Shown in pieces: positions 254 to 30,607 of a stretch of 44,478 nt of DNA. The stretch comes from Pirellulales bacterium (lineage in GTDB: Bacteria; Planctomycetota; Planctomycetia; Pirellulales; UBA1268). Numbering within the stretch: the first letter of the stretch is position 1; every line of letters begins with the position of its first letter. The position numbers and the translations under genes are program-made. The stretch lies in assembly GCA_044344765.1 (NCBI GenBank), contig JBIJCJ010000002.1, positions 1-44,478 on the forward strand. Reading direction: 5' to 3'. Under the pieces are notes generated by a model. That model had not been told where the DNA came from. It made no database searches and saw only the letters and a list, made by a program, of their open reading frames with translations.

Positions 254-700
254 ATGCCCGCCTCCGCTCCGCTCCGCCGCCTCGTCGCCACCCTCGATTC
301 GTCGCTGGCGATGTACATCGCCGATTCCGGCATCTGGTCCTACCCCGGACCGGAGGAGATCAAACTGGCGCTCGCCGATCTCGTGGGCGACCACAGGAGC
401 CTGCTCGACCGAGCCGGCACGGTGCTCGCCGAGCGGGAGGTGGCGGCCCCACGGACGGCCTACCCGCTCTCGTTCACGGCCCTGCACGACCTCGACCTGA
501 AGAACCTCCTGCCCCGGGTGATCCAGGGGCTCGATGCCCAGGCCGCCGCCTGCGAGTCGGTCGCGGCCGTCGCAGGTGACGACACGACCGCCGTCGAACT
601 GGCCCGCGAGGTCGTGCAGACCAACCGCCGCCACGGCGACCAGCTCCGCCAGCTCCTCGCCAAGAGCCGCGCCGGACTCATGGATGCGAAGGGTGCGTAG
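254..700 (+). CDS. hypothetical protein (148 aa, helical, no recognised motif)
   Basis: ATG ORF 12 nt downstream of the nuoN stop on the same strand. Amino-acid composition looks coding. I recognise no family. Confidence 0.45.
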   Translation: MPASAPLRRLVATLDSSLAMYIADSGIWSYPGPEEIKLALADLVGDHRSLLDRAGTVLAEREVAAPRTAYPLSFTALHDLDLKNLLPRVIQGLDAQAAACESVAAVAGDDTTAVELAREVVQTNRRHGDQLRQLLAKSRAGLMDAKGA

Positions 701-727
701 CCACCTTCTCACTTCTCGGCACTCAGT

Positions 728-1059
728 GCATTCTTGAGCGGTGGTCTTGCACTGTCGTGCATCCTGGAGCGGCGGTCTCCGACCGTCGTGCCGGCTGGTG
801 GGGTGGTCTCCGACCGACGTGCCGGTTGCTGGGAAGCCCGAAGCGCGAGCTGAGGGAATACGCGTCGCTTCACCTGACGCCACCCGCATACCCTCGGCTC
901 GCGCCTCGGGCTTCAAGGACAACGGGGCGTACCATCGAGGAGGGACGCCGAATCGGCCCGGTGTGCCGGCTGGAGCGGCGGTCTTGCACCGTCGTGCATC
1001 CTGTAGCGGCGGTCTCCGACCGTCGTGCATCCTGTAGCGGCGGTCTCCGACCGTCGTGC
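728..1059. repeat. composite intergenic repeat: 3 tandem ~31-bp family-A units (728-822), a central hairpin module (833-914, 18-bp stem), and 3 more family-A units (965-1059)
   Basis: The unit tgcatcctgtagcggcggtctccgaccgtcgtgc occurs twice exactly (995-1028 and 1026-1059), with degenerate copies at 728-760, 758-791, 792-822 and 965-997. In the central module, gaagcccgaagcgcgagc (833-850) pairs with gctcgcgcctcgggcttc (897-914) at 17 of 18 positions. Confidence 0.8.
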
Positions 1060-1092
1060 CGTGCCCGGACGTCGGGTATAACCCTCGGTCCC

Positions 1093-1866
1093 ATGCACCA
1101 CCTCTTTGACAGTCACTGCCACCTCGACCCGATGCGGTTCGGGGCCGAACTTCCCGACGTGCTGGCCCGCGCCCGGGCCGCGGGCGTCACGCGGATGACG
1201 GTCATCGGCACGCGGGCCGCCGACAGCGAGGCGGCCGCGGAACTGGCAGCCCGCGAGTCGGGCGTCGTGGCGGCGGCGGGCATCCATCCCAACGACGTGG
1301 CCGAGACCGAGCCGGGCGAGTGGGACCGGATCGTGCGGCTCGCCGAGGCGGGCCGCGTGGCCGCGATCGGCGAGACCGGGCTCGACTGGTATCGCACCAC
1401 GGCCCCGCCGGAGATGCAGCGTGACTCGTTCGATCGCCACCTCCGGCTGGCCCAGCGGCTCTCGTTGCCGGTCGTGATCCACACGCGGGAGAGCATCCGC
1501 GACGTGCTCGACATGCTCCGCGAGGCGGCCGCTCGCGGGCCGTTGCGGCCGGTGCTCCACGCCTTCACCGGCACGGCGGCCGAGGCGGCCGAGGCCCTCG
1601 ATCTCGGCTGCCACCTCGGCTTCGCGGGGATGGTGACCTTCCGCTCGTCGGCGGACCTCCGCGAGGTGGTGAAGACGGTGCCGCTCGAGCGGCTGCTCGT
1701 GGAGACAGACAGCCCGTTCCTCGCCCCGGAGCCGCTCCGCGGGAAGCGGAACGAGCCGGCGAATGTGGTGCACACGGCCCGCTGCCTGGCCCTGGTGCGG
1801 GGCGAGCCGTTCGCCGACTTCGCGGCCGCGACCACGGCCAACGCCCGCCGCGTGTTCGGCTGCTGA
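1093..1866 (+). CDS. tatD: TatD-family metal-dependent hydrolase/DNase
   Basis: MHHLFDSHCHLD... N-terminus plus IGETGLDWY and LETDSPFLAP motifs. I chose the ATG at 1093 because the upstream part of ORF 757-1866 is made of the repeat units. Confidence 0.85.
   Translation: MHHLFDSHCHLDPMRFGAELPDVLARARAAGVTRMTVIGTRAADSEAAAELAARESGVVAAAGIHPNDVAETEPGEWDRIVRLAEAGRVAAIGETGLDWYRTTAPPEMQRDSFDRHLRLAQRLSLPVVIHTRESIRDVLDMLREAAARGPLRPVLHAFTGTAAEAAEALDLGCHLGFAGMVTFRSSADLREVVKTVPLERLLVETDSPFLAPEPLRGKRNEPANVVHTARCLALVRGEPFADFAAATTANARRVFGC
1828..1866 (+). repeat. left copy of a 39-bp direct repeat (equals the last codons and stop of tatD)
   Basis: gcgaccacggccaacgcccgccgcgtgttcggctgctga recurs at 3061-3099 with 2 mismatches. 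Confidence 0.85.
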
Positions 1867-1881
1867 ACTGCTGCAGGGAGT

Positions 1882-2157
1882 CGTACGGCTCACACTTGAT
1901 CCTCGCGCATGGTCGGCTTTGTCCCGATAGTGGAACAGACATCGGGCGTGACCACGCTTCGGAAGCCCCCGGCGGGAGCCGGGGGGTGACGGGCTGCGCC
2001 GGGATGAGGGGCTGCGCCGTGAAGACGGGTCGCCCCGCGGGTTTTGGGAGAACGCGGGAAGGCGATCCACAAGTCCACGGAGTGGACCGCGTCACCCCCG
2101 GGCTTCCGCCCGGGGCTTTTGGGGAGGAACGTGCGAGGATCAAGTGTGTGCCGTATC
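1882..2157. mobile_element. 276-bp non-coding element bounded by ~27-bp terminal inverted repeats (MITE-like, or a long-stem structured RNA)
   Basis: The reverse complement of 1882-1909 (cgtacggctcacacttgatcctcgcgca) matches 2131-2157 (gtgcgaggatcaagtgtgtgccgtatc) with about 3 mismatches. The interior holds further GC-rich inverted segments and no credible ORF. Confidence 0.55.
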
Positions 2158-2185
2158 AGTCGCGGCGAGCGGCAGTTTCCAACGA

Positions 2186-2707
2186 TCACGATCCCATCAT
2201 CGCGGCGAGCGACCGGGCCGGCAGGAAGAGCCGGTAGGGATTGCCCGGCAATTCCAGGAAATCCCACCGCCGGTAAAAACGCTTGGCTCGTTCATCGACG
2301 CAGTCGAGGATCACGGCTACGAACGCAAATGTGCGGCCAGCGTCGTGGCAATCCCGGAGCGCCTGCGCGAGCAACCGGTCGCCGAGCCGGCTCCCCTGGT
2401 GGCGACGACTGACTCCCAGCCAGGCAACGACGGCCACAGGGAGTCCGCGACGCGGGAGTTTTCTGGCGAATTCAGCCGGCAGGTCGCCGAAATCCACCTG
2501 CCCTGTCGCCAAGGTGTAATACCCTGCAGTGTGACCATCCGGGCCAACCAGAACCTTCGTCGATGACAGCCGCTTGGACTGGTGTTGCAACGCCTTGGTA
2601 TGCAGCCAGTCATTGACCTCGATCTGCCCGCAATCAAACAATCCGCGAGCACGAGATCGGCCGAGGCCCTCGAGGGATAACCCTTGCGGAAACACGACGC
2701 CGCTCAC
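2186..2707 (-). CDS. tacT: GNAT-family acetyltransferase toxin (TacT/AtaT-like)
   Basis: GNAT core ...VAWLGVSRRHQGSRLGDRLLAQAL...RFYRRWDF. A GTG start at 2707 overlaps the antitoxin stop by 4 nt (GTGA). The ATG at 2782 is the alternative start. Confidence 0.75.
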   Translation of the reverse strand: MSGVVFPQGLSLEGLGRSRARGLFDCGQIEVNDWLHTKALQHQSKRLSSTKVLVGPDGHTAGYYTLATGQVDFGDLPAEFARKLPRRGLPVAVVAWLGVSRRHQGSRLGDRLLAQALRDCHDAGRTFAFVAVILDCVDERAKRFYRRWDFLELPGNPYRLFLPARSLAAMMGS

Positions 2708-3000
2708 CGCGCCCCTCGCATCATCGCGCCGAGCCGCCGCTGTGCTGCCGTCAATGCCCGAGGCGACTGGAGCGCCTGCCAAAAGGCTAACTGCTCGGTA
2801 GGCGTCAGGGTGATGGTGCTGTCACGGGCGCTCGCCGCCTCGCGCCGTGCCTGCGGCACCGTGACCGTTCGGACGTAGTCGCTGACGCTGATCCGGCGCA
2901 ATTCAGCTGCGGCCGCCAGCGCCTGCTTGCTTTCTGCGTCCAGCCGAACCATGAGCGTGCTCGACGTTGGGGCGACTTTTGTTTTTTGTGAACGTGGCAT
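2704..3000 (-). CDS. tacA: DUF1778 / ribbon-helix-helix antitoxin (TacA-like)
   Basis: 98 aa, containing ...LMVRLDAESKQALAAAAELRRISVSDYVR... and a C-terminal toxin-binding-like tail. It sits immediately upstream of the GNAT gene and overlaps it. GGAGGG lies 6 nt before the ATG. Confidence 0.75.
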   Translation of the reverse strand: MPRSQKTKVAPTSSTLMVRLDAESKQALAAAAELRRISVSDYVRTVTVPQARREAASARDSTITLTPTEQLAFWQALQSPRALTAAQRRLGAMMRGAR

Positions 3001-3019
3001 TGGCGTCCCTCCGGCTTCG

Positions 3020-3047
3020 AGTGTATTGCATAACGCTATACGAGCAA
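3020..3047 (-). promoter_or_regulatory. candidate sigma-70-type promoter and imperfect palindromic operator for tacAT
   Basis: The minus strand reads TTGCTC-N16-TACACT. The imperfect palindrome gtattgcataacgctatac (3023-3041) sits in a locally AT-rich leader. Confidence 0.3.
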
Positions 3048-3060
3048 GGCCGGGGCGGGG

Positions 3061-3099
3061 GCGACCACGGCCAACGCCCGCCGGGTGTTCGACTGCTGA
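3061..3099 (+). repeat. right copy of the 39-bp direct repeat (a relic tatD 3' end)
   Basis: 37 of 39 positions match 1828-1866. It ends 6 nt before the stop of the convergent kinase gene. Confidence 0.85.
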
Positions 3100-3105
3100 G
3101 CGGAG

Positions 3106-4680
3106 TCAGCCGCGGCGCAGGCGGCCGACCTGGAAGTCGGCGATTGCCGCCGCGCTGACGACGAGCACGGCCACGATCGCGGCCACGTTCCAGCGGAATG
3201 CGGCGGGGTCCGTGGCCAGCAGGATGGCGTAGCCGGCGAGCGCAGCCGCCGCGGCGATCCTCACCAGGCGGCGGTCGAGCCACAGCCCGGCCGCGGACAC
3301 GAGGACCGGGTGGGCGGCGACGAGCGGACTGTCCGCACCGCCCACCATCACCAATAGCGCGGTCACGAACGCCGCGTCGGTGACCACGAACGCGATGCCG
3401 GCCTGCCGCAGCGACAGCCGGCGGATCCCGAGCCACTCGCAGGCCGCCGCACAAGCCGCCCACAGGCCGAGGCCGATGGCGACCGGGCGGTAGAACGGCA
3501 CGGTCGTGGGATCGCCGAGGCAGCGGGCCGCGACGATGGCGATCGTGCCGAGGATGGCGGCCACCCGGAATCCGGCCGCGGGGTAGCGGCGCAGCACGCG
3601 GCCCAGGCGGTGCAACGGGCCGCCACCAGGCGGGGCGATGCGGTCGCCGCGGAGCCAGGCCTCGAGATCGTCGCCGACGGCCGCGGCCGTCGGATACCGG
3701 CGGGCCGGATCCTTCTCCAGGCATCGGAGGCAGATCTGCTGGAGCGCCGTCGGCACCTCCGGATGGAGCCGCCGCGGAGGCACGGGCTCGCGCTCCAGCA
3801 CGTTCATGACCACGAGCAGCCGTGTGTCGCCGGAGAAGGGCGGCCGGCCGGTGAGGGCCGTGTAGAGGATCGCTCCCAGGCCGTAGACGTCGCTGCGGGC
3901 GTCGAGGCCGCGGACTCGGCCTGCGGCCTGCTCCGGGGCCATGTACTCCGGCGTGCCGAGCACCGTGCCGGTGGCGGTAACGCCGTCTTCCGTGGCCGCG
4001 TCGCGGGCCAGGCCGAAGTCTGCCAGGTGTGGTGTGCCTGATGCGTCGAGCAGCACGTTCGAGGGCTTGAGGTCGCGGTGCAGGATGCCGCAGTCGTGGA
4101 GGTGGTGCACGGCCCGCGCCACCGCCGCAATCACGGTCGCCGCCGCGCGGGGCGACAGCGGCCCGGCCCGGAGGCGGGAGCCGAGGTCGTCCCCCGCGAC
4201 GAGATCCATGGCGAAGTAGAGCTGGCCGTCGTGTTCCCCGGCGTCGTGGATGGCGACGATCCCCGGATGTCGCACGCGGGCCGCGAGCCGGGCCTCGGCG
4301 AGGAATCGCCGCCGCTGCTCCGCGGTCGCGAACGCGCCCGCCGACAGCAGCTTCAGGGCCACGTCGCGGCCGAGCCGCTCGTGGCGGGCCCGATACACCA
4401 CGCCCATGCCGCCCCGCCCGAGCTCGGCGCCGACGGCGAACGGCCCGAAGCGCCGGCCGGTGAGCGATTCCGCGCCAGCCGCATGGGCCGCGTCGGGCGC
4501 GACGGTCGAGGCGAGATCGTCGAGGCCGCGGAGGCAGGCCGTCCACGCGGCGAGGGGGGGGCAGGCGGCGAGCAGGCGCCGTTCTTCAGCCGCGTCGGCC
4601 GCCTGGATCGCCGCCAGGTAGCGATCGAGAAGATCGGGATCGACCTCCGCGGCGGCAGCCGGCTCATCGGGCCGCGTCAT
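3106..4680 (-). CDS. Ser/Thr protein kinase with a C-terminal polytopic membrane domain
   Basis: Hanks kinase motifs: GRGGMGVVYRARH, VALK, HRDLKPSNVLL, DFGLAR, GTPEYMAPE. The C-terminal ~190 aa form several hydrophobic helices. The ATG at 4680 overlaps the sigma gene stop (ATGA). Confidence 0.85.
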   Translation of the reverse strand: MTRPDEPAAAAEVDPDLLDRYLAAIQAADAAEERRLLAACPPLAAWTACLRGLDDLASTVAPDAAHAAGAESLTGRRFGPFAVGAELGRGGMGVVYRARHERLGRDVALKLLSAGAFATAEQRRRFLAEARLAARVRHPGIVAIHDAGEHDGQLYFAMDLVAGDDLGSRLRAGPLSPRAAATVIAAVARAVHHLHDCGILHRDLKPSNVLLDASGTPHLADFGLARDAATEDGVTATGTVLGTPEYMAPEQAAGRVRGLDARSDVYGLGAILYTALTGRPPFSGDTRLLVVMNVLEREPVPPRRLHPEVPTALQQICLRCLEKDPARRYPTAAAVGDDLEAWLRGDRIAPPGGGPLHRLGRVLRRYPAAGFRVAAILGTIAIVAARCLGDPTTVPFYRPVAIGLGLWAACAAACEWLGIRRLSLRQAGIAFVVTDAAFVTALLVMVGGADSPLVAAHPVLVSAAGLWLDRRLVRIAAAAALAGYAILLATDPAAFRWNVAAIVAVLVVSAAAIADFQVGRLRRG

Positions 4681-8073: not shown

Positions 8074-8123
8074 AATCCTCCGCGTCGGGGAAGTCTCAAC
8101 GTGGCGAGAAGTGGTGGCCGGAC

Positions 8124-10637
8124 ATGATCGAGTTTTGTGCGTTTGCGATCGTCGTGCTCGGTGTGCTCGTGGTCCGCATGACCGGCGTGCTGCGCGAAAT
8201 CCAGGAGGCGCAGCGCACCCTGCTCGAGCGGCAGCGGCAGATGGACGCCCTGCTGACGGCGAGTTTCACGGGTCGGGATCAGGCCACGTCTTCCGAGCCG
8301 GCGGTCGTGATCGTGCCCCCGTTCGCCGGGTCCGCCACCCCTGCGCCGATGCCGTCGCCAGTGCCGGCCGCAGAGCCGCCTCCGCTGCCGGCTGTTACGG
8401 CCGCCGCTCCGCAGGCCAAACCGTTCGCCGGTGGGTTCACGGACCTCACGTCCGCCGATCTCGACGTTGCCATTTCCGCACGCGAGGTGGTGCCGGCCGC
8501 GGCCCGCGTCGTCTCGCCGCCACGGCAGCCCTTGCCCCGCGCGGTTCCGAGCCGCTTCGAGACGGCCGCCCGCGACACGCTCGGCAGGATCTGGAACTGG
8601 ATCATCGTCGGTGAGGATCACATCCCGGAGGGGGTTTCCACGGAGTACGCGGTCGCGAGCCAGTGGCTGCTGCGGCTCGGGATCATCGTCCTCGTCGCCG
8701 GCATCGGCTTCTTTCTCAAGTGGTCGATCGACCGCGGCCTGCTCGGGCCCCAGGCCCGCGTGGCCCTCTCCACCGCGGCCGGGCTCGGAATGCTGATCCT
8801 CGGCGCGCGGCTGCTCGGCGGCCGCTACGGAGTGCTGGGCCAAGGCTTCCTCGGCGGCGGCCTGGCCACTCTGTACTTCAGCGTCTTCGCGGCCCACCGG
8901 CTGTTCGGCCTCGTCGACGTCGTCACCGCCTTCGCGCTCATGGCCGCCGTCACCATGCTGGCGGGCGGGATCGCGGTGCGTTTCAACTCGATGCTCGTGG
9001 CCGTGCTCGGGATCATCGGCGGCTACGGCACGCCGCTGATGTTCACGACGGCGGACCCCAACCTGCCGGTCCTGTTCGGCTACCTGCTCGTGCTCGGCTG
9101 CGGCGTGCTGGCGATCTGCTTCTGGCGGAACTGGCCGCTGGTCAACCTGCTGGCGTTCGTGGCGACCTGGTGCCTGGTGCCGCCGGCGCTGGTGCAGTAC
9201 GAGACGAGCCAGTTTCGCGAGGTCTATCCATTCATCGTCGGCTTCTTCGTGCTCTTCTCGACGATGACCTTCCTTTACAAGGTGGTCCGCGGCACGCCCG
9301 CGACGGTCCTCGACCTGTTCGCCCTGTTCGCCAACGCGGCCGTGTTCTTCGGGATCTCCTTCTGGATGGTGGACGACGCCTTCGGCCGGCGGCAGGTGGC
9401 GCTCGTGACGCTCGGCCTGGCCGCCTTCTACACCCTCCACGTGCTCTTCTTCCTCCGGCGCGGGGGCGTGGACCGCGGCCTGCTCGTCTCCTTTCTCGGC
9501 CTCGCCGCCACGTTCGTGGCCGTGACGATGCCGCTGGTGCTCTCGCGGCAGTGGGTCACGGCCAGCTGGGCGATCCAGGCGGTCGTGCTCCTGTGGATGG
9601 CCGAGCGGCTCGAGAGCGGCATCGTGAGACGCATGGGGCTCGCGCTCCTCGGCATCGTGTTCGTGCGGTTCTGCGGCCTTGATCTGGGCCGTACGTTCCT
9701 GCCCGGCGGCAGCGTCGCGGCGGCCGCGGCCGAACTGCCCGTGGGCGGCTACCTGCGGCTCCTCGCCGAGCGGGCGATAGCCTTCGGTATTCCCATCGCG
9801 GCCTTCGGCGTGGCGGCTCGGCTCGTCGGCCGCACGCCGCGGCCCGCCGACCCTGCCAAGTCCGACCGCGGGCACGTCGGTCTCGCCTCATTCCTCTGGC
9901 TCGCCGGGATCGCGGCCCTGCTGTTCTATGTGCACCTTGAAGTCGATCGCACGGCGGAGTTCTTCTTCCCCGCGGCGCGGCTACCGCTGCTGTCGATCGT
10001 CTGGGTCGCCATCGGGGCGATCTTTCTCCGGGAATACGCGGTCGGCGGCAGCTCGTTCGCGTTGGGGCTCGTCGGCTGCGTGGTGATGGCGGTGCTCTTG
10101 AAACTCGTCGCCTGGGACCTGCCGGCCTGGGGCGTGGACGAACGGTTCGTGGCAGGCCCGGGGTACTCGCTGCTCGATGCCGGGCTGCGGGCCCTGGACT
10201 TCGGGGCAGTGATCGCCTTCATGGTGTCGGCCTACGCCGTCACCGGCAGAGCCCGGGCCCGCACGGATGCCCGGCCGCTGCTGGCCGTCGCCTGCCTGGG
10301 CACGCTGTTCGCCTACCTGACCCTGGAGACGAACTCGTTCCTGGCCGCGTATTATCCGGGGTTCCGCGCCGGCGGCGTGTCGATCGTGTGGGCGGTCTTC
10401 GCGCTCGCGCTCGTGCTGGCGGGCATCGCCCGCAACGTCGGGCCGCTCCGGTTGGTCGGGCTCGGGCTGTTCGCGATCGTCTCGGGCAAGGTGTTCCTCC
10501 ACGATCTGGCGAGTCTCGACACGTTCTGGCGGATCGTGGCGTTCATCATCCTCGGCCTGCTGCTGATCGCCGGTTCGTTCGCGTACCTGAAGTATCGCGA
10601 GAAGTTCATGGTCAGGGCCGGGGAGGGGAGGTCATGA
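8124..10637 (+). CDS. large polytopic membrane protein, DUF2339-like
   Basis: N-terminal TM helix, then a coiled segment, a Pro/Ala-rich linker, and about 20 TM helices. This matches the DUF2339 architecture. The ATG at 8124 lies inside the read-through ORF 6348-10637. Confidence 0.7.
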
Positions 10638-11536
10638 GCCGCCCGCATGCGATCCTGATCACCGCGGCGGTTCTTGTCGCCGCGGCCGCGGAGGCCGCCG
10701 CCGGCGGGCGGCGTGGGAAGCCGCTCGTGCTGCCGCCGCTCGAGGCGACGGGCCTCGTCGCGGTGCGGCTCGATGCCGACGTCCATGCCGCCGCCGCCGA
10801 CGGCTACGGCGACCTGCGGATCCTGGATGCTCAGGCCGCCGAGGTTCCCTACATCGTGCGGGACGTGATCACGACGGACCTCTTGATCGGCGGCTTTCGC
10901 GTCGTTCGCGAGCCCGATGAGCGGGCGACGCGGATCACGGTCGATGCCCGCCGGCAGCCCGTCACCGAGTTCACGATCGCCACCGATTCCCGGAACTTCA
11001 GCCGGTCGCTGACGGTGACGCGGCCGGCCGAGCCCGATGGCGACGGGCCACGCCGCCCGCGCAGGCCGATCGCCACGGCCACGATTACACGGATCGACGT
11101 CGCGGGCCTGCGCCGCGAGCAGCTGGCGATCGGGCTGCCCGAGAGCCGCCTGGAGACGTACGAGCTCGTGATCGACGACGGCGACAGCCCGCCACTCGCC
11201 GTGACCGGCGTCACGGCCCGCGGCCCGGCCCGCGAGGTCGTGTTCCTGGCCGAACCGGGCGCGGCCTACCGGCTGGCCTACGGCGGTGAGCTCGCTCCGC
11301 CGCGGTACGACACGGCCGCCATCCGCACGGCGGTTGCCGCCCGGGTGGTCGCGACGCCCGCGACGCTCGGAGCGGAGTCGGTCGTCGCGACGCCACAGCC
11401 CGCGGCCGATCCGCTGTGGCTGCTCGGCGACGGCCGCTTCCAGATCGCCGTGATCGCGACGCTGGCGATCATCCTCGCCGCCGCGCTGTTCCGAGCCGCG
11501 CAGCGGATCGACGCGGCCCCACCATCACCGGAGTGA
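10634..11536 (+). CDS. DUF3999-like secreted/anchored protein
   Basis: Signal peptide, ...[16 protein letters not shown]..., ...[17 protein letters not shown]...[17 protein letters not shown]..., and a C-terminal TM anchor. The ATG overlaps the DUF2339 stop (ATGA). DUF2339/DUF3999 pairing is a common synteny. Confidence 0.55.
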
Positions 11537-11538
11537 CC

Positions 11539-12951
11539 ATGACCGCGACCGCACGGAGGCAGGCGCCGTACGTTTTCTTCGGCCAGACGACGTCGCTGTG
11601 CGGCGAGTGCCTGGCGCTCGTGCCGGCCAAGATCGTGATCGAGGAGGGCCGGGTCTACTACCACAAGCGATGCCGCACCCACGGGCCGCAGAAGGTGCTC
11701 GTGTCCACCGACGCCGCCTACTGGCGGCTGTGCCACGACTACCTCAAGCCGGGCGACCGGCCGCTGGCCTTGCAGACGCACACCGAACGGGGCTGCCCCT
11801 ACGACTGCGGACTCTGCCCTGACCACGAGCAGCACTCGTGCCTGGCACTCATCGACGTCAACGAGGCCTGCAACCTCACCTGCCCGGTCTGCTTCTCCGA
11901 CTCCTCGCCGCAGCGGTCGCTCCACCGGCCGCTGGCCGAGATCGAGCGGATGATGGACGCGCTGGTGCGGAGCGAGGGGGAGCCCGACCTGCTGCAGCTT
12001 TCCGGGGGCGAGCCGACGATCCACCCCGAGATCCTGGAAATCCTCGCGGCGGCCAAGCGGCGGCCGATCCGCCACGTGATGCTCAACACCAACGGCATCC
12101 GCATCGCCGAGGATCCCGAGTTCGTGAAGCGGCTCGCCGATCTGCGGCCGGGGTTCGAGGTCTATTTGCAGTTCGACTCGCTGCGGCCGGAGGCTCACCT
12201 CAATCTCCGCGGCGCGGACCTGACGCGGATCCGCCGCCAGGCCATGGAGAACCTGGAGCGGGCCGGCATCTCCACGACGCTCGTCGTGGTGGTGAAACAG
12301 GGGGTCAACGACGCCGAGATCCCGGCGATCATCGACCACGCCCTCCAGTGGCGGTGCGTCCGCGGCGTCGTCCTCCAGCCGATCCAGGACGCCGGCCGCA
12401 ACGAGGGCTTTGATGCGTCAAAGGATCGTTTTCCCCTCTCCGCCATCCGGCGGCGGATCGTCGATTCCGGCGGCTCGTTCGGGGAAGGCGACATCATCCC
12501 GCTCCCCTGCAATCCGGAGAGCATCGCCATCGGCTACGCCCTGCGGAAGGGAACGCAGATCGCCCCGGTGACCTCGTTCTTTCCCCGGGAGCTGCTCGTC
12601 GAGGCCCTGCCGAATGCGATCACGTTCGAGAAATACCCCGATCTGCACAAGCAGGTGCTCGAGTTCTTCTCGCTCGCGACCGCCGAGTGCAACAACGAGA
12701 AGAAGCTCGCCGAGCTGCTCTGCTGCCTGCCCGAGGTGCCCCTGCCGGCGGGGCTGGGGTATGAAGACACCTTCCGGGTGGTGATCGTGGAGTTCATGGA
12801 CGCCCACAATTTCTGCCTCGGCCGCGTGAAGCGGTCGTGCATCCACTTCGTCACGCCGGAAGAGAAGATCATCCCGTTCGAGACCTACAACCTGTTCTAC
12901 CGCGACGCGGCCGCGCAGGCCCGGATGCGGCGGTCGCTGGAGGGGCGATGA
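11539..12951 (+). CDS. radical SAM enzyme with an N-terminal Cys-rich ribbon and an auxiliary-cluster motif
   Basis: CX3CX2C core CNLTCPVC followed by SGGEPT. N-terminal CGEC...HKRCRTHG. Extra motif GCPYDCGLCPDHEQHSC. Conserved tail ...EFMDAHNFCLGRVKRSCIHF...IPFETYN. The start lies 2 nt after the previous stop. Confidence 0.85.
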   Translation: MTATARRQAPYVFFGQTTSLCGECLALVPAKIVIEEGRVYYHKRCRTHGPQKVLVSTDAAYWRLCHDYLKPGDRPLALQTHTERGCPYDCGLCPDHEQHSCLALIDVNEACNLTCPVCFSDSSPQRSLHRPLAEIERMMDALVRSEGEPDLLQLSGGEPTIHPEILEILAAAKRRPIRHVMLNTNGIRIAEDPEFVKRLADLRPGFEVYLQFDSLRPEAHLNLRGADLTRIRRQAMENLERAGISTTLVVVVKQGVNDAEIPAIIDHALQWRCVRGVVLQPIQDAGRNEGFDASKDRFPLSAIRRRIVDSGGSFGEGDIIPLPCNPESIAIGYALRKGTQIAPVTSFFPRELLVEALPNAITFEKYPDLHKQVLEFFSLATAECNNEKKLAELLCCLPEVPLPAGLGYEDTFRVVIVEFMDAHNFCLGRVKRSCIHFVTPEEKIIPFETYNLFYRDAAAQARMRRSLEGR

Positions 12952-21545: not shown

Positions 21546-22469
21546 CTACCGCGCGCGCGGGTGGGCCTTATCGAAGGCGTCGAGGAGGCGGCTGGTCGTG
21601 ACGTGGGTGTAGATCTGCGTGGTCACGAGGCTCTTGTGGCCGAGCAGTTCCTGGACGCTGCGGATGTCGGCGCCGGCGTCGAGGAGATGCGTGGCGAAGC
21701 TGTGCCGGAGCGTGTGCGGGCTGGCCCGGCCGGTGAGGCCGGCGACGGCCAGGTGCTTCTCCAGGAGCCGGGCCACGCCGCGGACGGAAAGCCGGCCGCC
21801 GAGCTTGTTGGTGAACAGCGGTCGTGAGCCGCGCGGCGCCGTGGCCGCCTGGCGGGGGCGGGCGGCGAGCCATGCCTCCAAGGCGGCGCGGGCGTGGCGG
21901 CCGACGATGCCCAGCCGCTCGCGGCGGCCCTTGCCGCGGACGCGGACGGTCGCGTTGCGCAGGTCGAGGTCGGCGTCGTCGAGTCCGACCAGTTCCCGGA
22001 CGCGGACGCCCGACGAGTACATGAGCTCGAGGATCGCCCGATCCCGCAGGCCCCCGGCCGCCTGCGGCTGCGGAGCCGCCAGGAGCCGGGCGATCTCGGC
22101 GCCGGTGAGGAACTTGGGCAGCTTCCGCGCCCGCCGCGGACCACGGAGCGGCTTCGCGGGGTTGGCCCGAACCCAGCCTTCGCGCTGGCCGAAGGCATAG
22201 AAGCTGCGCATGCTGGCCAGCTTGCGGGCGACGGTGGAGGCGGCGTAACCGGCGGCGTGCAGGCCCGATGCGAACCGCCGTAGGAGTACGGTCGATGCTT
22301 CGCCCGGGCCGCGGCAGCCGGCCGACCGCAGGAACTCCTCGAGCTGGAGGAGGTCCTCGCGGTAGCTCTTGAGCGTCAGCGGCGAGCCCCCCCGCTCCGC
22401 CGAGAGGTACGTCAGAAAGCGGCCGATCGCGGCGGCGAAGTCGGGTGTGTTCGCCGGGGAACGTGGCAT
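21546..22469 (-). CDS. xerC: tyrosine site-specific recombinase, XerC/XerD family
   Basis: N-terminal SAM-like domain (FLTYLSAERGGSPLTLKSYREDL) and catalytic ...HTLRHSFATHLLDAGADIRSVQELLGHKSLVTTQIYTHV. Confidence 0.8.
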   Translation of the reverse strand: MPRSPANTPDFAAAIGRFLTYLSAERGGSPLTLKSYREDLLQLEEFLRSAGCRGPGEASTVLLRRFASGLHAAGYAASTVARKLASMRSFYAFGQREGWVRANPAKPLRGPRRARKLPKFLTGAEIARLLAAPQPQAAGGLRDRAILELMYSSGVRVRELVGLDDADLDLRNATVRVRGKGRRERLGIVGRHARAALEAWLAARPRQAATAPRGSRPLFTNKLGGRLSVRGVARLLEKHLAVAGLTGRASPHTLRHSFATHLLDAGADIRSVQELLGHKSLVTTQIYTHVTTSRLLDAFDKAHPRAR

Positions 22470-22484
22470 CGCGGTGGGCCCGGC

Positions 22485-28948: not shown

Positions 28949-29992
28949 TTACCCCGCAGCCAGCCCGCCGAAGGCGTTGTCCACGTGATGGACGCCGCGG
29001 TTGTGGGCGATCGACTTGAGTCGCTCCGCGCGGGTCGCGCAGTACGTGCCGAGCCAACGAGTCTTGCCAACAAGTCTTTGCAGAGTTGACTGCCAATATT
29101 CGGCGCTCGTGCCCAGACGGGCCATGATGCCGGCGACTTCTTCGGTGACTCGCGCCTTGCCTTGGCGGCAGAGTCGGGCCGTCCAGTCCACGAGCACGAG
29201 GTAGCTGGAGAGTGAAAGTCCGGGCAGCATGCCTTCGCGGGAGTCGCCCGAGGCGCTGCGATCCTGGAGCGGGCAGAGCCAGTGGGATTGCTCGAGGTCG
29301 GCTTCGACTTCGGCCGCGGCGACTGATCGGGCTTTTGCGGCGGCCTGGAGGGTGTCCAGCCCGCCGGACGTGCGGGCGTGATCCACCCGCTGCTTGATCG
29401 AGGTGTGCGGGCTGGCTTCGGGAACCTTCGCGATCCCGGCTGCGACGGGGTTGAGGTCGATGTAGGTGCATGTCGCGAGCAGCGCTTCTTCGTCGAGGAT
29501 GGCGATCGACTTGTAGCGGGCTTCCCAGAACGTGCCCTTGCAGCCGTCTTCCTTGTTGGCCAGCCGCGCGAGTGGCTCCTTGAGGGCCTTCATGAACCAG
29601 CCGAGGTCTTGAAGTCGCTGGCGGTAGCGGGCGACACGGGCTGAGTCTTGGCACTCGTGAGCGATCCACGCCTGCAGCGTAGCGGGGTCGTCGGCGTCGA
29701 GGCACGACGGCGGATAGACGGCGATCCAGCGGCGAACGACGTCTTCGTCGGTCCAGTCTTCGGCCACGCCTGGGTCGAGCCGGCAGAGAACGTGGAGGTG
29801 GTTGTCGAGGATGGCGAATCCGCAGACGGAAACGGCGAATTGCCTGGCGAGGGCTTCGAGTCGGGTCTCGATCCAGGCTTTGCGGTGCTCGAAACCCTCC
29901 CCGCAGAGAAAGGCCCGTCGCACGCAGCGTGAAATGCAGTGGTAGTAGCGGGTGATCGCGATGTCTACCAACTGCCGCCTCGGCATCGTCAT
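28949..29992 (-). CDS. IS200/IS605-superfamily HUH (Y1) transposase, REP-associated tyrosine transposase (RAYT)-like
   Basis: HUH motif in ...FAILDNHLHVLC..., catalytic Tyr region ...TCTYIDLNPVAAG..., and the YYHCISRCVRRAFL N-terminus typical of COG1943-type proteins with a long C-terminal extension. Confidence 0.75.
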   Translation of the reverse strand: MTMPRRQLVDIAITRYYHCISRCVRRAFLCGEGFEHRKAWIETRLEALARQFAVSVCGFAILDNHLHVLCRLDPGVAEDWTDEDVVRRWIAVYPPSCLDADDPATLQAWIAHECQDSARVARYRQRLQDLGWFMKALKEPLARLANKEDGCKGTFWEARYKSIAILDEEALLATCTYIDLNPVAAGIAKVPEASPHTSIKQRVDHARTSGGLDTLQAAAKARSVAAAEVEADLEQSHWLCPLQDRSASGDSREGMLPGLSLSSYLVLVDWTARLCRQGKARVTEEVAGIMARLGTSAEYWQSTLQRLVGKTRWLGTYCATRAERLKSIAHNRGVHHVDNAFGGLAAG

Positions 29993-30055
29993 CGCGGGAG
30001 CCTCCTGCGGGATCTAGATACTGAACAACCGTATCCTACGGCTCCCGCGGCCGGT

Positions 30056-30425
30056 CGTCAACGATTACGCTGTCAACGATTACGCCTGTACTTTTTCTTT
30101 TCTAACGATTACGCCTGTCCTTTTTCTTCTTTTCTTCTTTACGCCTGTCCTTTTGGCTCTTTTGGCTCTTTTGGCTCTTTTCCTTTTGGCTTTGGGCTTC
30201 GCCTGTCCTTTTGGTCCCGTCTTCTATTACGCCTGTCCTTTTGGCTTTCGCGCCTGTCCTTTTGGCTTTTTCTTTTGGCTTTGGGCTTCGCCTGTCCTTT
30301 TGGTCCCGTCTTCTATTACGCCTGTCCTTTTGGCTTTTGGCTTTTCTTCCGCCTGTCCTTTTGGCCTCGCTTCTTCCGCCTGTCCTTTTGGCTTCTTTCT
30401 TCCGCCTGTCCTTTTGGCTTTTGGC
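30056..30425. repeat. AT-rich, strand-asymmetric array of ~11 copies of cgcctgtccttttgg, including an 89-bp internal duplication
   Basis: Units start at 30083 (variant), 30112, 30142, 30200, 30230, 30251, 30289, 30319, 30350, 30377 and 30403. Segments 30184-30246 and 30273-30335 are near-identical. aacgattacgc occurs 3 times at 30060-30114. Confidence 0.85.
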
Positions 30426-30460
30426 TTTCAGCAACACGATGAATCCGGGTACAAGATTCA

Positions 30461-30530
30461 CGGCGAGCCTCCTTGCTCAAAGTGAATGGGTGTAGAAGTC
30501 CATCCACTGTGACGGAGGCTCGCCGCTTTT
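30461..30530 (+). terminator. hairpin plus T-run downstream of the array (possible plus-strand terminator)
   Basis: cggcgagcctcc (30461-30472) pairs perfectly with ggaggctcgccg (30514-30525) and is followed by cttttc. The loop is long (41 nt), so the call is weak. Confidence 0.3.
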
Positions 30531-30607
30531 CAGAGGGCAGTTTCAGCCCTGGAATCAGCCCTCAAAAACTGCAAAAGTCGAGCTTAGTGCCAAGTGCGTA
30601 ACTTGGG

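Follow-up and report, generated by a model that had tools for sequence, protein, structure and literature searches.

How can a bare toxin-antitoxin (TA) operon come to lie between two convergent genes, enclosed by direct repeats that reproduce a gene end, while both neighbours remain complete? The question is raised by a 44,478-bp stretch of contig JBIJCJ010000002.1 from a freshwater planctomycete of the order Pirellulales (hereafter the window), in which an operon of the TacA/TacT type stands between a tatD-family hydrolase gene and a Ser/Thr protein kinase gene. The initial annotation of this locus had noticed that the end of tatD recurs on the far side of the operon, and had interpreted the arrangement as a site-specific integration that regenerates the end of its target gene, as integrative islands do at tRNA genes. 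Here, Pfam and NCBIfam profiles were scanned against the insert and against open reading frames (ORFs) across the window, and the locus was compared with its counterparts in related genomes and metagenome contigs. The repeat turns out to be a block of ~73-80 bp of target DNA present in two copies. The history that we favour, with moderate confidence, is a single illegitimate insertion accompanied by a target duplication of ~75-80 bp, then homologous recombination between the repeats and, later, the arrival of an inverted-repeat element.

The last 39 nt of tatD (1828-1866) recur at 3061-3099 with 37 of 39 positions identical. With up to three mismatches allowed, the window contains no further match, and none appeared in 100 dinucleotide-preserving shuffles, so that the repeat first described at both ends of the insert is well founded. 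Its extent had to be revised: it was thought to stop with the tatD stop codon, but it continues through the intergenic spacer into the end of the kinase gene. A repeat search lengthens the pair to 45 nt (1822-1866 and 3055-3099, 41/45 identical) and, once positions 1883-2157 are taken out, 1867-1882 joined to 2158-~2175 aligns to 3100-3125, where the spacer and the last codons of the kinase gene lie. In all, the duplication measures ~73-80 bp and comprises 45 nt of the tatD 3' end, a 16-nt spacer, the last two bases of which already belong to the kinase stop codon, and 12-18 nt of the kinase 3' end. Seven sequences were aligned (two empty sites, both copies of the window, both copies of the sister allele L107 and the junction of contig L081, all described below); they share one common block of ~80 columns, and similarity is lost abruptly on either side of it. 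The block is unique: in 80 relatives the repeat sequence was found only at the tatD end, and the 44-kb window holds two matches. The second copy of the 39-mer does end 6 nt from the kinase stop codon (TCA at 3106-3108), as had been pointed out, but only in the window. The relatives have 14 nt between the tatD and kinase stop codons, at empty sites and in their second copies alike; the right spacer of the window (3100-3107) is 8 nt short, and copy 2 of L107 retains the full 16 nt. The 6-nt spacing thus reflects a strain-specific deletion of 8 nt.

The unoccupied junction can be seen in relatives. A scan with the tatD protein, limited to one genome per species, yielded 80 loci, all from planctomycete metagenome-assembled genomes and mostly from freshwater, and none of these loci encodes the toxin or the antitoxin. 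The empty site that the initial annotation had predicted in close relatives, where tatD runs straight into the convergent kinase gene, was found at four of them (L001, L021, L056 and L065) and in two closer relatives reached through protein look-ups (L103 and L104); an exact look-up of the tatD protein of the window matched no record. The tatD protein of L103 is 97% identical in amino acids to that of the window and its flanks are 95-97% identical in nucleotides, the tatD of L104 is 94% identical, and both have 14 nt between the stop codons. The ~73-80-bp block is single in L103, L104 and L001 and double in the window and in L107, and L103 2128-2189 can be aligned to either repeat copy of the window. 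It had been argued that the interpretation as a site-specific integration would fall if the repeat proved to be part of a longer duplication unrelated to the TA genes; the repeat is indeed longer, but the duplication is tied to the insertion of these genes.

The occupied state is equally well documented. Thirteen further contigs have the same two junctions and the same fillers as the window. One of them (L106) comes from an independent sequencing run and is 100% identical to window positions 2117-3294, which rules out an artefact of assembly. Seven contigs from the Joint Genome Institute (JGI; L107-L113) represent a sister allele, 95.6% identical to the window over 7.5 kb, and five Logan contigs (L114-L118) have junction sequences of the L107 type. 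In tatD and the kinase region respectively, identity is 97.0 and 95.8% between the window and L107, 96.7 and 95.4% between the window and the empty L103, and 97.5 and 96.9% between L107 and L103; for the cassette it is 94.1% between the window and L107, 93.4% between the window and L081, and 97.9% between L107 and L081. Trees of the cassette and of the flanks agree in placing the window as the outgroup, and this congruence fits one old, vertically inherited insertion. The occupied L107 has its nearer relative in the empty L103, not in the window, and L103 is nested among occupied strains. This position suggests either a precise loss by recombination between the repeats or a replacement of the locus through recombination between strains.

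The inserted cassette is a putative TA system of the TacAT/AtaRT type, with a GNAT toxin, presumably active, and a ribbon-helix-helix antitoxin. Pfam and the sequence agree with the first description of a GNAT toxin gene and a DUF1778 antitoxin gene overlapping by GTGA (2704-2707), in which the antitoxin stop codon meets the GTG start codon of the toxin. The toxin matches KacT (PDB 5zgn), TacT (5fvj) and AtaT (6ajm) with E-values from 4e-14 to 2e-12 over residues 14-171, nearly its full length, and no PADLOC or NCBIfam model matches toxin or antitoxin. As in TacAT, AtaRT and KacAT, the DUF1778/TacA antitoxin gene lies upstream of the GNAT toxin gene and overlaps it, and the leader holds an operator-like palindrome; the difference lies in the low identity of the toxin to the characterised members (E~1e-13). 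This quasi-palindromic sequence, GTATTGCATAACGCTATAC at 3023-3041, is conserved in three other versions of the cassette (L081, L082 and L083). A consensus promoter scan made no call in the cassette, and the promoter assigned to the leader is accordingly a candidate. Both TA reading frames are intact in all alleles despite a nucleotide divergence of 6-16%, an indirect sign that the toxin may acetylate aminoacyl-tRNA and arrest growth, and that the antitoxin may neutralise it. The GC content of the cassette is 0.59-0.65, against 0.72-0.78 in the flanks, a composition foreign to its surroundings that we count in favour of an insertion. As a separate observation, the 3' coding ends of toxin and antitoxin share 24 nt at 83% (2192-2215 and 2716-2739).

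The same operon was met in unrelated surroundings on two other contigs, L082 (10.3 kb) and L083, at 88 and 84% nucleotide identity. Homology to them is confined to window positions 2183-3050 and 2183-3043 respectively, starting 3 nt past the toxin stop codon and reaching the end of the leader that holds the operator-like sequence; positions 3051-3054, beyond the point where homology to the cassette at other loci stops, are junction filler. A peptidase S9 gene converges on the toxin gene in L082, and the two stop codons are 4 nt apart. These limits suggest that the cassette moves as a minimal unit from promoter to stop codon. No trace of the tatD/kinase block exists in L082 or L083, and since the block is missing from the cassette elsewhere, it must be a duplication of this particular target and not something that the cassette carries. 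Neither L082 nor 19 more distant relatives of the cassette (20 loci in all) have a flanking direct repeat above shuffled controls; the long duplication is thus not a signature of the whole family. A toxin scan of metagenome contigs returned only relatives of at most 71% amino acid identity, none of them informative on the insertion.

The insert had also been described as containing a 276-bp element bounded by inverted repeats. The element is real, with a length of 275 bp, but it is a separate and later insertion into the left repeat copy and no part of the cargo. It is secondary because it is absent from the L081 junction and from the empty sites, where the flanking sequence is contiguous: GAGTCAG(T/C)CGCGG is uninterrupted in L081, L103, L104, L001 and copy 2, and is split as GAGTC/AG(T/C)CGCGG by the 275 bp in the first copies of the window and of the L107-type allele; L106-L118 all have the element at this position. 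The target duplication at its insertion point is 2 bp (TC) at most. A TA target duplication of the IS630/mariner type was considered and rejected, as L103 and L081 read GAGTCAG with no TA at that point. The terminal inverted repeats (1884-1906 and 2133-2155) match at 22 of 23 positions, the inner 29-bp inverted repeat occupies 1963-1991 and 2090-2118, and the whole folds into a long hairpin with a minimum free energy of -91.9 kcal/mol (z=-8.3). No Pfam family was found for its ORFs. One copy exists in the window, and ~1 Mb of tatD loci from relatives contains none save at the orthologous position. A recent transfer of the element between the window and L107 was also discarded, as its 98.2% identity is equalled by neighbouring stretches and carries no signal.

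The element may be called similar to miniature inverted-repeat transposable elements (MITEs), and to REPINs, on account of its structure: it shares with them its size of 275 bp, the 23-bp terminal inverted repeats, the lack of coding capacity, the long hairpin and a presence/absence polymorphism. It differs from them in that a single copy was seen, that no parent insertion sequence (IS) was identified and that its target duplication does not exceed 2 bp. Its inner inverted repeat forms GC-rich hairpins on both strands (plus strand 2096-2124, minus strand 1963-1991), and that of the plus strand is followed by a short T run, CCCCGGGCTTCCGCCCGGGGCTTTTGGGG. The inner hairpin might serve as a terminator for the convergent tatD and tacAT transcripts; a consensus terminator scan made no call.

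The two repeat copies differ in which of their halves is in use. In the left copy the last 45 nt of tatD (1822-1866) are both the functional gene end and the first part of the repeat, and the kinase fragment behind them is non-functional: its first 12 nt match the kinase end at 11 of 12 positions and are followed, after a 2-nt gap, by 6 further nt. In the right copy the kinase end is functional, and the tatD end (3055-3099) is a non-functional duplicate that bears a Gly-to-Asp and a CC-to-GG change. The halves not in use drift in every allele, as seen from three substitutions in copy 2 of L107 and from the 2-nt gap, which breaks the frame, in the copy-1 kinase fragment. Table 1 collects the coordinates.

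Table 1 Features of the tatD-kinase junction in the window, in order of position
Feature	Position	Strand	Basis or remark
tatD-family hydrolase gene	1093..1866	+	Pfam TatD_DNase E=2.9e-80; NCBIfam YchF/TatD subfamily
Left repeat copy, part 1: 45 nt of tatD 3' end and 16-nt spacer, ACTGCTGCAGGGAGTC	1822..1882		Aligns to single-copy junctions of L103, L104 and L001 and to 3055-3107
MITE-like element, 275 bp, splitting the left repeat copy	1883..2157		23-bp terminal inverted repeats and inner 29-bp inverted repeat
Left repeat copy, part 2: non-functional kinase 3'-end fragment, AGTCGCGGCGAGCGGCAG	2158..2175		Same fragment in L107 and L081
10-nt filler between repeat and toxin stop codon, TTTCCAACGA	2176..2185		No homology to target or L082; last 3 nt match L083
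GNAT toxin gene, TacT/AtaT/KacT type, 173 aa, GTG start	2186..2707	-	Pfam Acetyltransf_1, 23.9 bits (cutoff 20.7)
TacA/DUF1778 antitoxin gene, 98 aa	2704..3000	-	Pfam TacA1, 33 bits (cutoff 21)
Cassette leader	3001..3054	-	Ribosome-binding site GGAGGG, operator-like sequence, weak -35/-10 candidate
Right repeat copy: 45-nt copy of tatD end, spacer, functional kinase 3' end	3055..3125		Repeat alignments with the window and L107
Ser/Thr protein kinase gene, C-terminal membrane region, convergent with tatD	3106..4680	-	Pfam Pkinase E=5.8e-51

A third state of the locus is recorded in L081, a JGI contig of 1,099 bp whose toxin is 95% identical to that of the window. Its first and last 141 bases are identical, so that it traces a circular path whose unit is 958 bp long; we take 141 to be the largest default k-mer of the MEGAHIT assembler. 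Around this unit follow the toxin, the antitoxin, the leader, one hybrid repeat, the filler and the toxin stop codon, with no inverted-repeat element. The hybrid repeat consists of the tatD end, the full spacer and a kinase fragment of the copy-1 type. The two cassette ends are 93 nt apart and hence bridged within a 141-mer, so that reads with the promoter-repeat-toxin junction must exist. L081 represents either an excised circle or a tandem array, and either would be the product of recombination between the two repeat copies. In its tatD end and spacer, 59 of 61 positions agree with the empty-site L103, as counted by eye on the printed sequences. As its repeat is nearest to L103 and its cassette to L107 (97.9%), it must derive from a third occupied allele without the inverted-repeat element; such an allele was not found as a linear contig. 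One contig of the L081 type stands against 13 linear occupied contigs.

These observations may be joined into the following history. The tacA-tacT operon of ~0.88 kb (2176-3054) would have entered the tail-to-tail tatD/kinase junction once, in an ancestor of this Pirellulales lineage, and the event would have duplicated ~73-80 bp of the target, from the last 45 nt of tatD across the 14 nt that separate the stop codons to 12-18 nt of the kinase end. The foreign fragment was probably joined illegitimately to two target positions ~75-80 bp apart. Staggered breaks that were filled in, or template switching, could have effected the joining with no recombinase encoded by the element. As the block covers both stop codons, both host genes kept complete ends, and the insertion survived. 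The 275-bp element landed in the left copy later, the unused halves of both copies drifted, and the strain of the window lost 8 nt of its right spacer. Recombination by the host between the direct repeats would have removed the insert precisely and restored the empty site, and the same recombination would yield the circular or tandem form of 958 bp.

Several other scenarios may explain the same junctions. Direct repeats that flank an insert, that are single at empty sites and of which a circular-path contig retains exactly one hybrid are also what a tyrosine or serine recombinase, acting in trans or since lost, would leave behind, the ~75-80-bp block then being attL and attR and the 958-bp circle bearing attP. 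The junctions are precise and identical across occupied alleles, as such an integration would give, and the window does encode a XerC/D-like tyrosine recombinase of 312 aa (21549-22484, minus strand), which scores above an NCBIfam subfamily cutoff and just below both equivalog cutoffs. Yet this gene lies 19 kb away and is probably a housekeeping enzyme, and the Pfam and NCBIfam scans found no recombinase gene in the insert, which bears out the earlier statement that it holds neither integrase nor transposase, nor is there one beside it. Moreover, the occupied alleles are all consistent with one event, so that nothing points to repeated targeting, and an element of 275 bp interrupts copy 1 without apparent consequence. 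The repeat, a GC-rich coding sequence, presumably does not resemble the dif consensus either. We prefer a target duplication to an integration in the manner of tRNA islands because the block is wholly derived from the target, because it is absent from the cassette elsewhere and because its unused halves are decaying, as working att sites would not be expected to do. Site-specific recombination at this locus accordingly seems to us distinctly unlikely. From the initial annotation there remain the insertion, the empty site, the preserved tatD end and a circular or tandem junction, whereas a recombination core of 39 bp that belongs to the element is not supported. The repeats being demonstrably duplicated target DNA, we also ruled out that they are an integron attC site or part of a Xer/dif module.

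Alternatively, a larger island with its own integrase might have entered at the tatD 3' end and decayed until a TA pair was left between att repeats. TA modules commonly stabilise islands and outlast them, as is generally known and has been reviewed (PMC7167474), and direct repeats that regenerate a gene 3' end are typical of islands. Against this, the insert ends within 4-13 nt of the limits of nucleotide homology to the cassette at two unrelated loci, and a deletion would therefore have needed to trim the island to exactly the minimal operon; none of the three allele types contains extra DNA or a pseudogene, and the repeat covers the end of the kinase gene too, needlessly for an island that targets tatD. 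We consider such a remnant very improbable. A further possibility is that a non-replicating circle with one copy of the tatD-kinase junction enters empty sites by a RecA-dependent single crossover of the Campbell type, leaves by the reverse reaction and spreads in this way. That L081 consists of the cassette and one repeat would suit this well, as would its mixed affinities, the tatD end and spacer being so close to L103 and the cassette nearest to L107, and empty and occupied alleles are interleaved among strains that are 95-97% identical. Nevertheless, a first insertion that generates the duplication would still be required, so that the proposal explains spread and not origin; the congruence of cassette and flank trees is what vertical descent would give, and L081, a single contig beside 13 linear occupied ones, may be a tandem array. 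We hold this guidance by homology to be rather unlikely. We would likewise grant a low probability to its fuller form, in which a selfish element without a recombinase cycles between the integrated, the tandem and the 958-bp circular state by the homologous recombination of its hosts and re-enters the empty junctions of related genomes. If true, it would be the TA counterpart of the 'virus-like life cycle' that has been proposed, and never demonstrated, for restriction-modification (RM) systems.

The illegitimate insertion with target duplication that we favour has weak points of its own. The mechanism of joining leaves no diagnostic trace, the mechanism of long target duplications is itself not settled in the literature (PMC2853133), and no donor sequence is known in which microhomology at the joins could be scored. 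Identical junctions are equally expected from precise site-specific recombination. The known precedent concerns RM systems, for which double-strand cleavage by the cargo has been proposed as the common cause, and a tRNA-acetylating toxin would offer no such activity. The loss of the insert in L103 would be deduced from small differences of distance among strains that may recombine. Finally, the right edge of the block is uncertain, as the match needs a 2-nt gap after 12 nt, and an exact 12-mer of the left-copy kinase fragment (TCGCGGCGAGCG, 2160-2171) recurs within the toxin 3' end (2199-2210). This shared 12-mer could be a microhomology used at the original join, the product of a gene conversion or a coincidence.

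The tatD-kinase junction hosts different occupants in different lineages. In two related species, L002 (8816-13492) and L015, a gene of 1558 aa with DUF4132, DUF5724 and HEAT domains lies at this same junction, and the tatD C-terminus is altered after RVFG; visual inspection, to which the comparison was limited, revealed no target duplication in the junction sequences. In the absence of a target duplication, these two loci were ruled out as a second case of the same process. In L105 (3284-4554) tatD directly adjoins a homologue of window 11564-12764, ~9.7 kb including the kinase gene being absent, and L001 (13316-15690) is without the region of a DUF2339 gene (window 8094-11559). Upstream of tatD there are two arrays of 31-nt tandem repeats (726-833 and 970-1059) with ~2-3 copies each and 78-93% matches; several offset BLAST matches to L103 suggest a copy number that varies between strains. 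For the start of the kinase gene we followed L103 and L107, where the gene is called with 524 aa; in the window the open frame extends to 5079.

Elsewhere in the window, no tRNA gene was found, and an Rfam search of positions 700-3300 gave only a sub-threshold match, to Acido-Lenti-1 within the inverted-repeat element (20.8 bits, cutoff 37), which was treated as noise. An ORF of 354 aa (28952-30013, minus strand) with weak similarity to IS200-like Y1 transposases and to REP-associated tyrosine transposases (RAYTs) lies 26 kb from the insert and scores 24.4 bits with Pfam and 41.5 bits with NCBIfam, where the cutoff is 80. Directly upstream of it is a T-rich patch (30001-30600) with 50% GC in a genome of 70% GC, which contains nine exact copies of CGCCTGTCCTTTTGG (motifs at 30142-30417, with irregular spacing of 21-58 nt); neither of the two ORFs tested there has a Pfam match. 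The remaining ORFs scanned are ordinary cellular genes or have no Pfam match.

Among known mobile systems, the integrase-mediated islands at tRNA genes and other gene 3' ends resemble this locus in repeats that regenerate the 3' end of the target, in the empty site and in a junction that here may stem from a circle or from a tandem array. They differ from it in their integrase, since no recombinase was found in or next to the insert, and in their repeat, which travels with the element; here the repeat covers the end of the neighbouring gene and is not carried elsewhere, and the cargo amounts to 0.88 kb. The IMEX elements and the pdif modules of Acinetobacter plasmids are closer in cargo, as both bring small recombinase-free cargo, often TA systems, bracketed by repeats and dependent on the Xer recombinases of the host. 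Their repeats, in contrast, are 28-bp XerC/XerD sites, whereas those of the window come from the target, as duplicates of its coding and intergenic DNA, and show nothing that looks like a dif site.

The closest parallel is the insertion with long target duplication defined for RM gene complexes (Nobusato et al. 2000, Gene 259:99; Furuta, Abe and Kobayashi 2010, PMC2853133). This class comprises inserts of less than 20 kb without a mobility gene, flanked by direct repeats of more than 30 bp that are single-copy in the genome with the empty site (PMC2853133). The RM target duplications range from 30 to ~400 bp and often span flanking stop or start codons, so that the flanking genes are kept intact; the repeats are cited as driving RM amplification, and a cycle of invasion, amplification and release has been proposed (PMC2853133). 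The present locus has a block of ~73-80 bp that is found twice in the window and in L107 and once in L103, L104 and L001, and its insert of ~0.88 kb contains tacA and tacT only. It thus shares with the RM cases a small unit of the addiction type, the lack of a mobility gene, repeats across the flanking stop codons and an atypical composition, and the circular or tandem contig L081 fits the proposed cycle. It departs from them in its cargo, a GNAT/DUF1778 pair which would be a type II TA system with a tRNA-acetylating toxin, whereas the class was defined for RM cargo; the breakage of DNA by the cargo, which has been suggested as the cause in RM systems, does not apply to a TA pair. Its host, moreover, is a planctomycete not known to be naturally competent. 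In a limited search of the literature, the long-target-duplication mode was found for RM systems only and for no classical TA system, and a review of 2020 states that how TA systems integrate into chromosomes "remain[s] unelucidated" (PMC7167474).

At this locus one event can be followed in several natural states: the site is seen empty and, in three alleles, occupied, there is a junction from a circle or a tandem array, and the cassette recurs at unrelated loci. It indicates that a bare TA operon, from promoter to stop codon, can enter a tail-to-tail junction and leave both genes unharmed by duplicating ~75-80 bp of its target. Recombination between direct repeats of such length would be able to reverse the insertion or to amplify it, and two classes of addiction modules, the RM and the TA systems, would then be linked through a common route of gain and loss.

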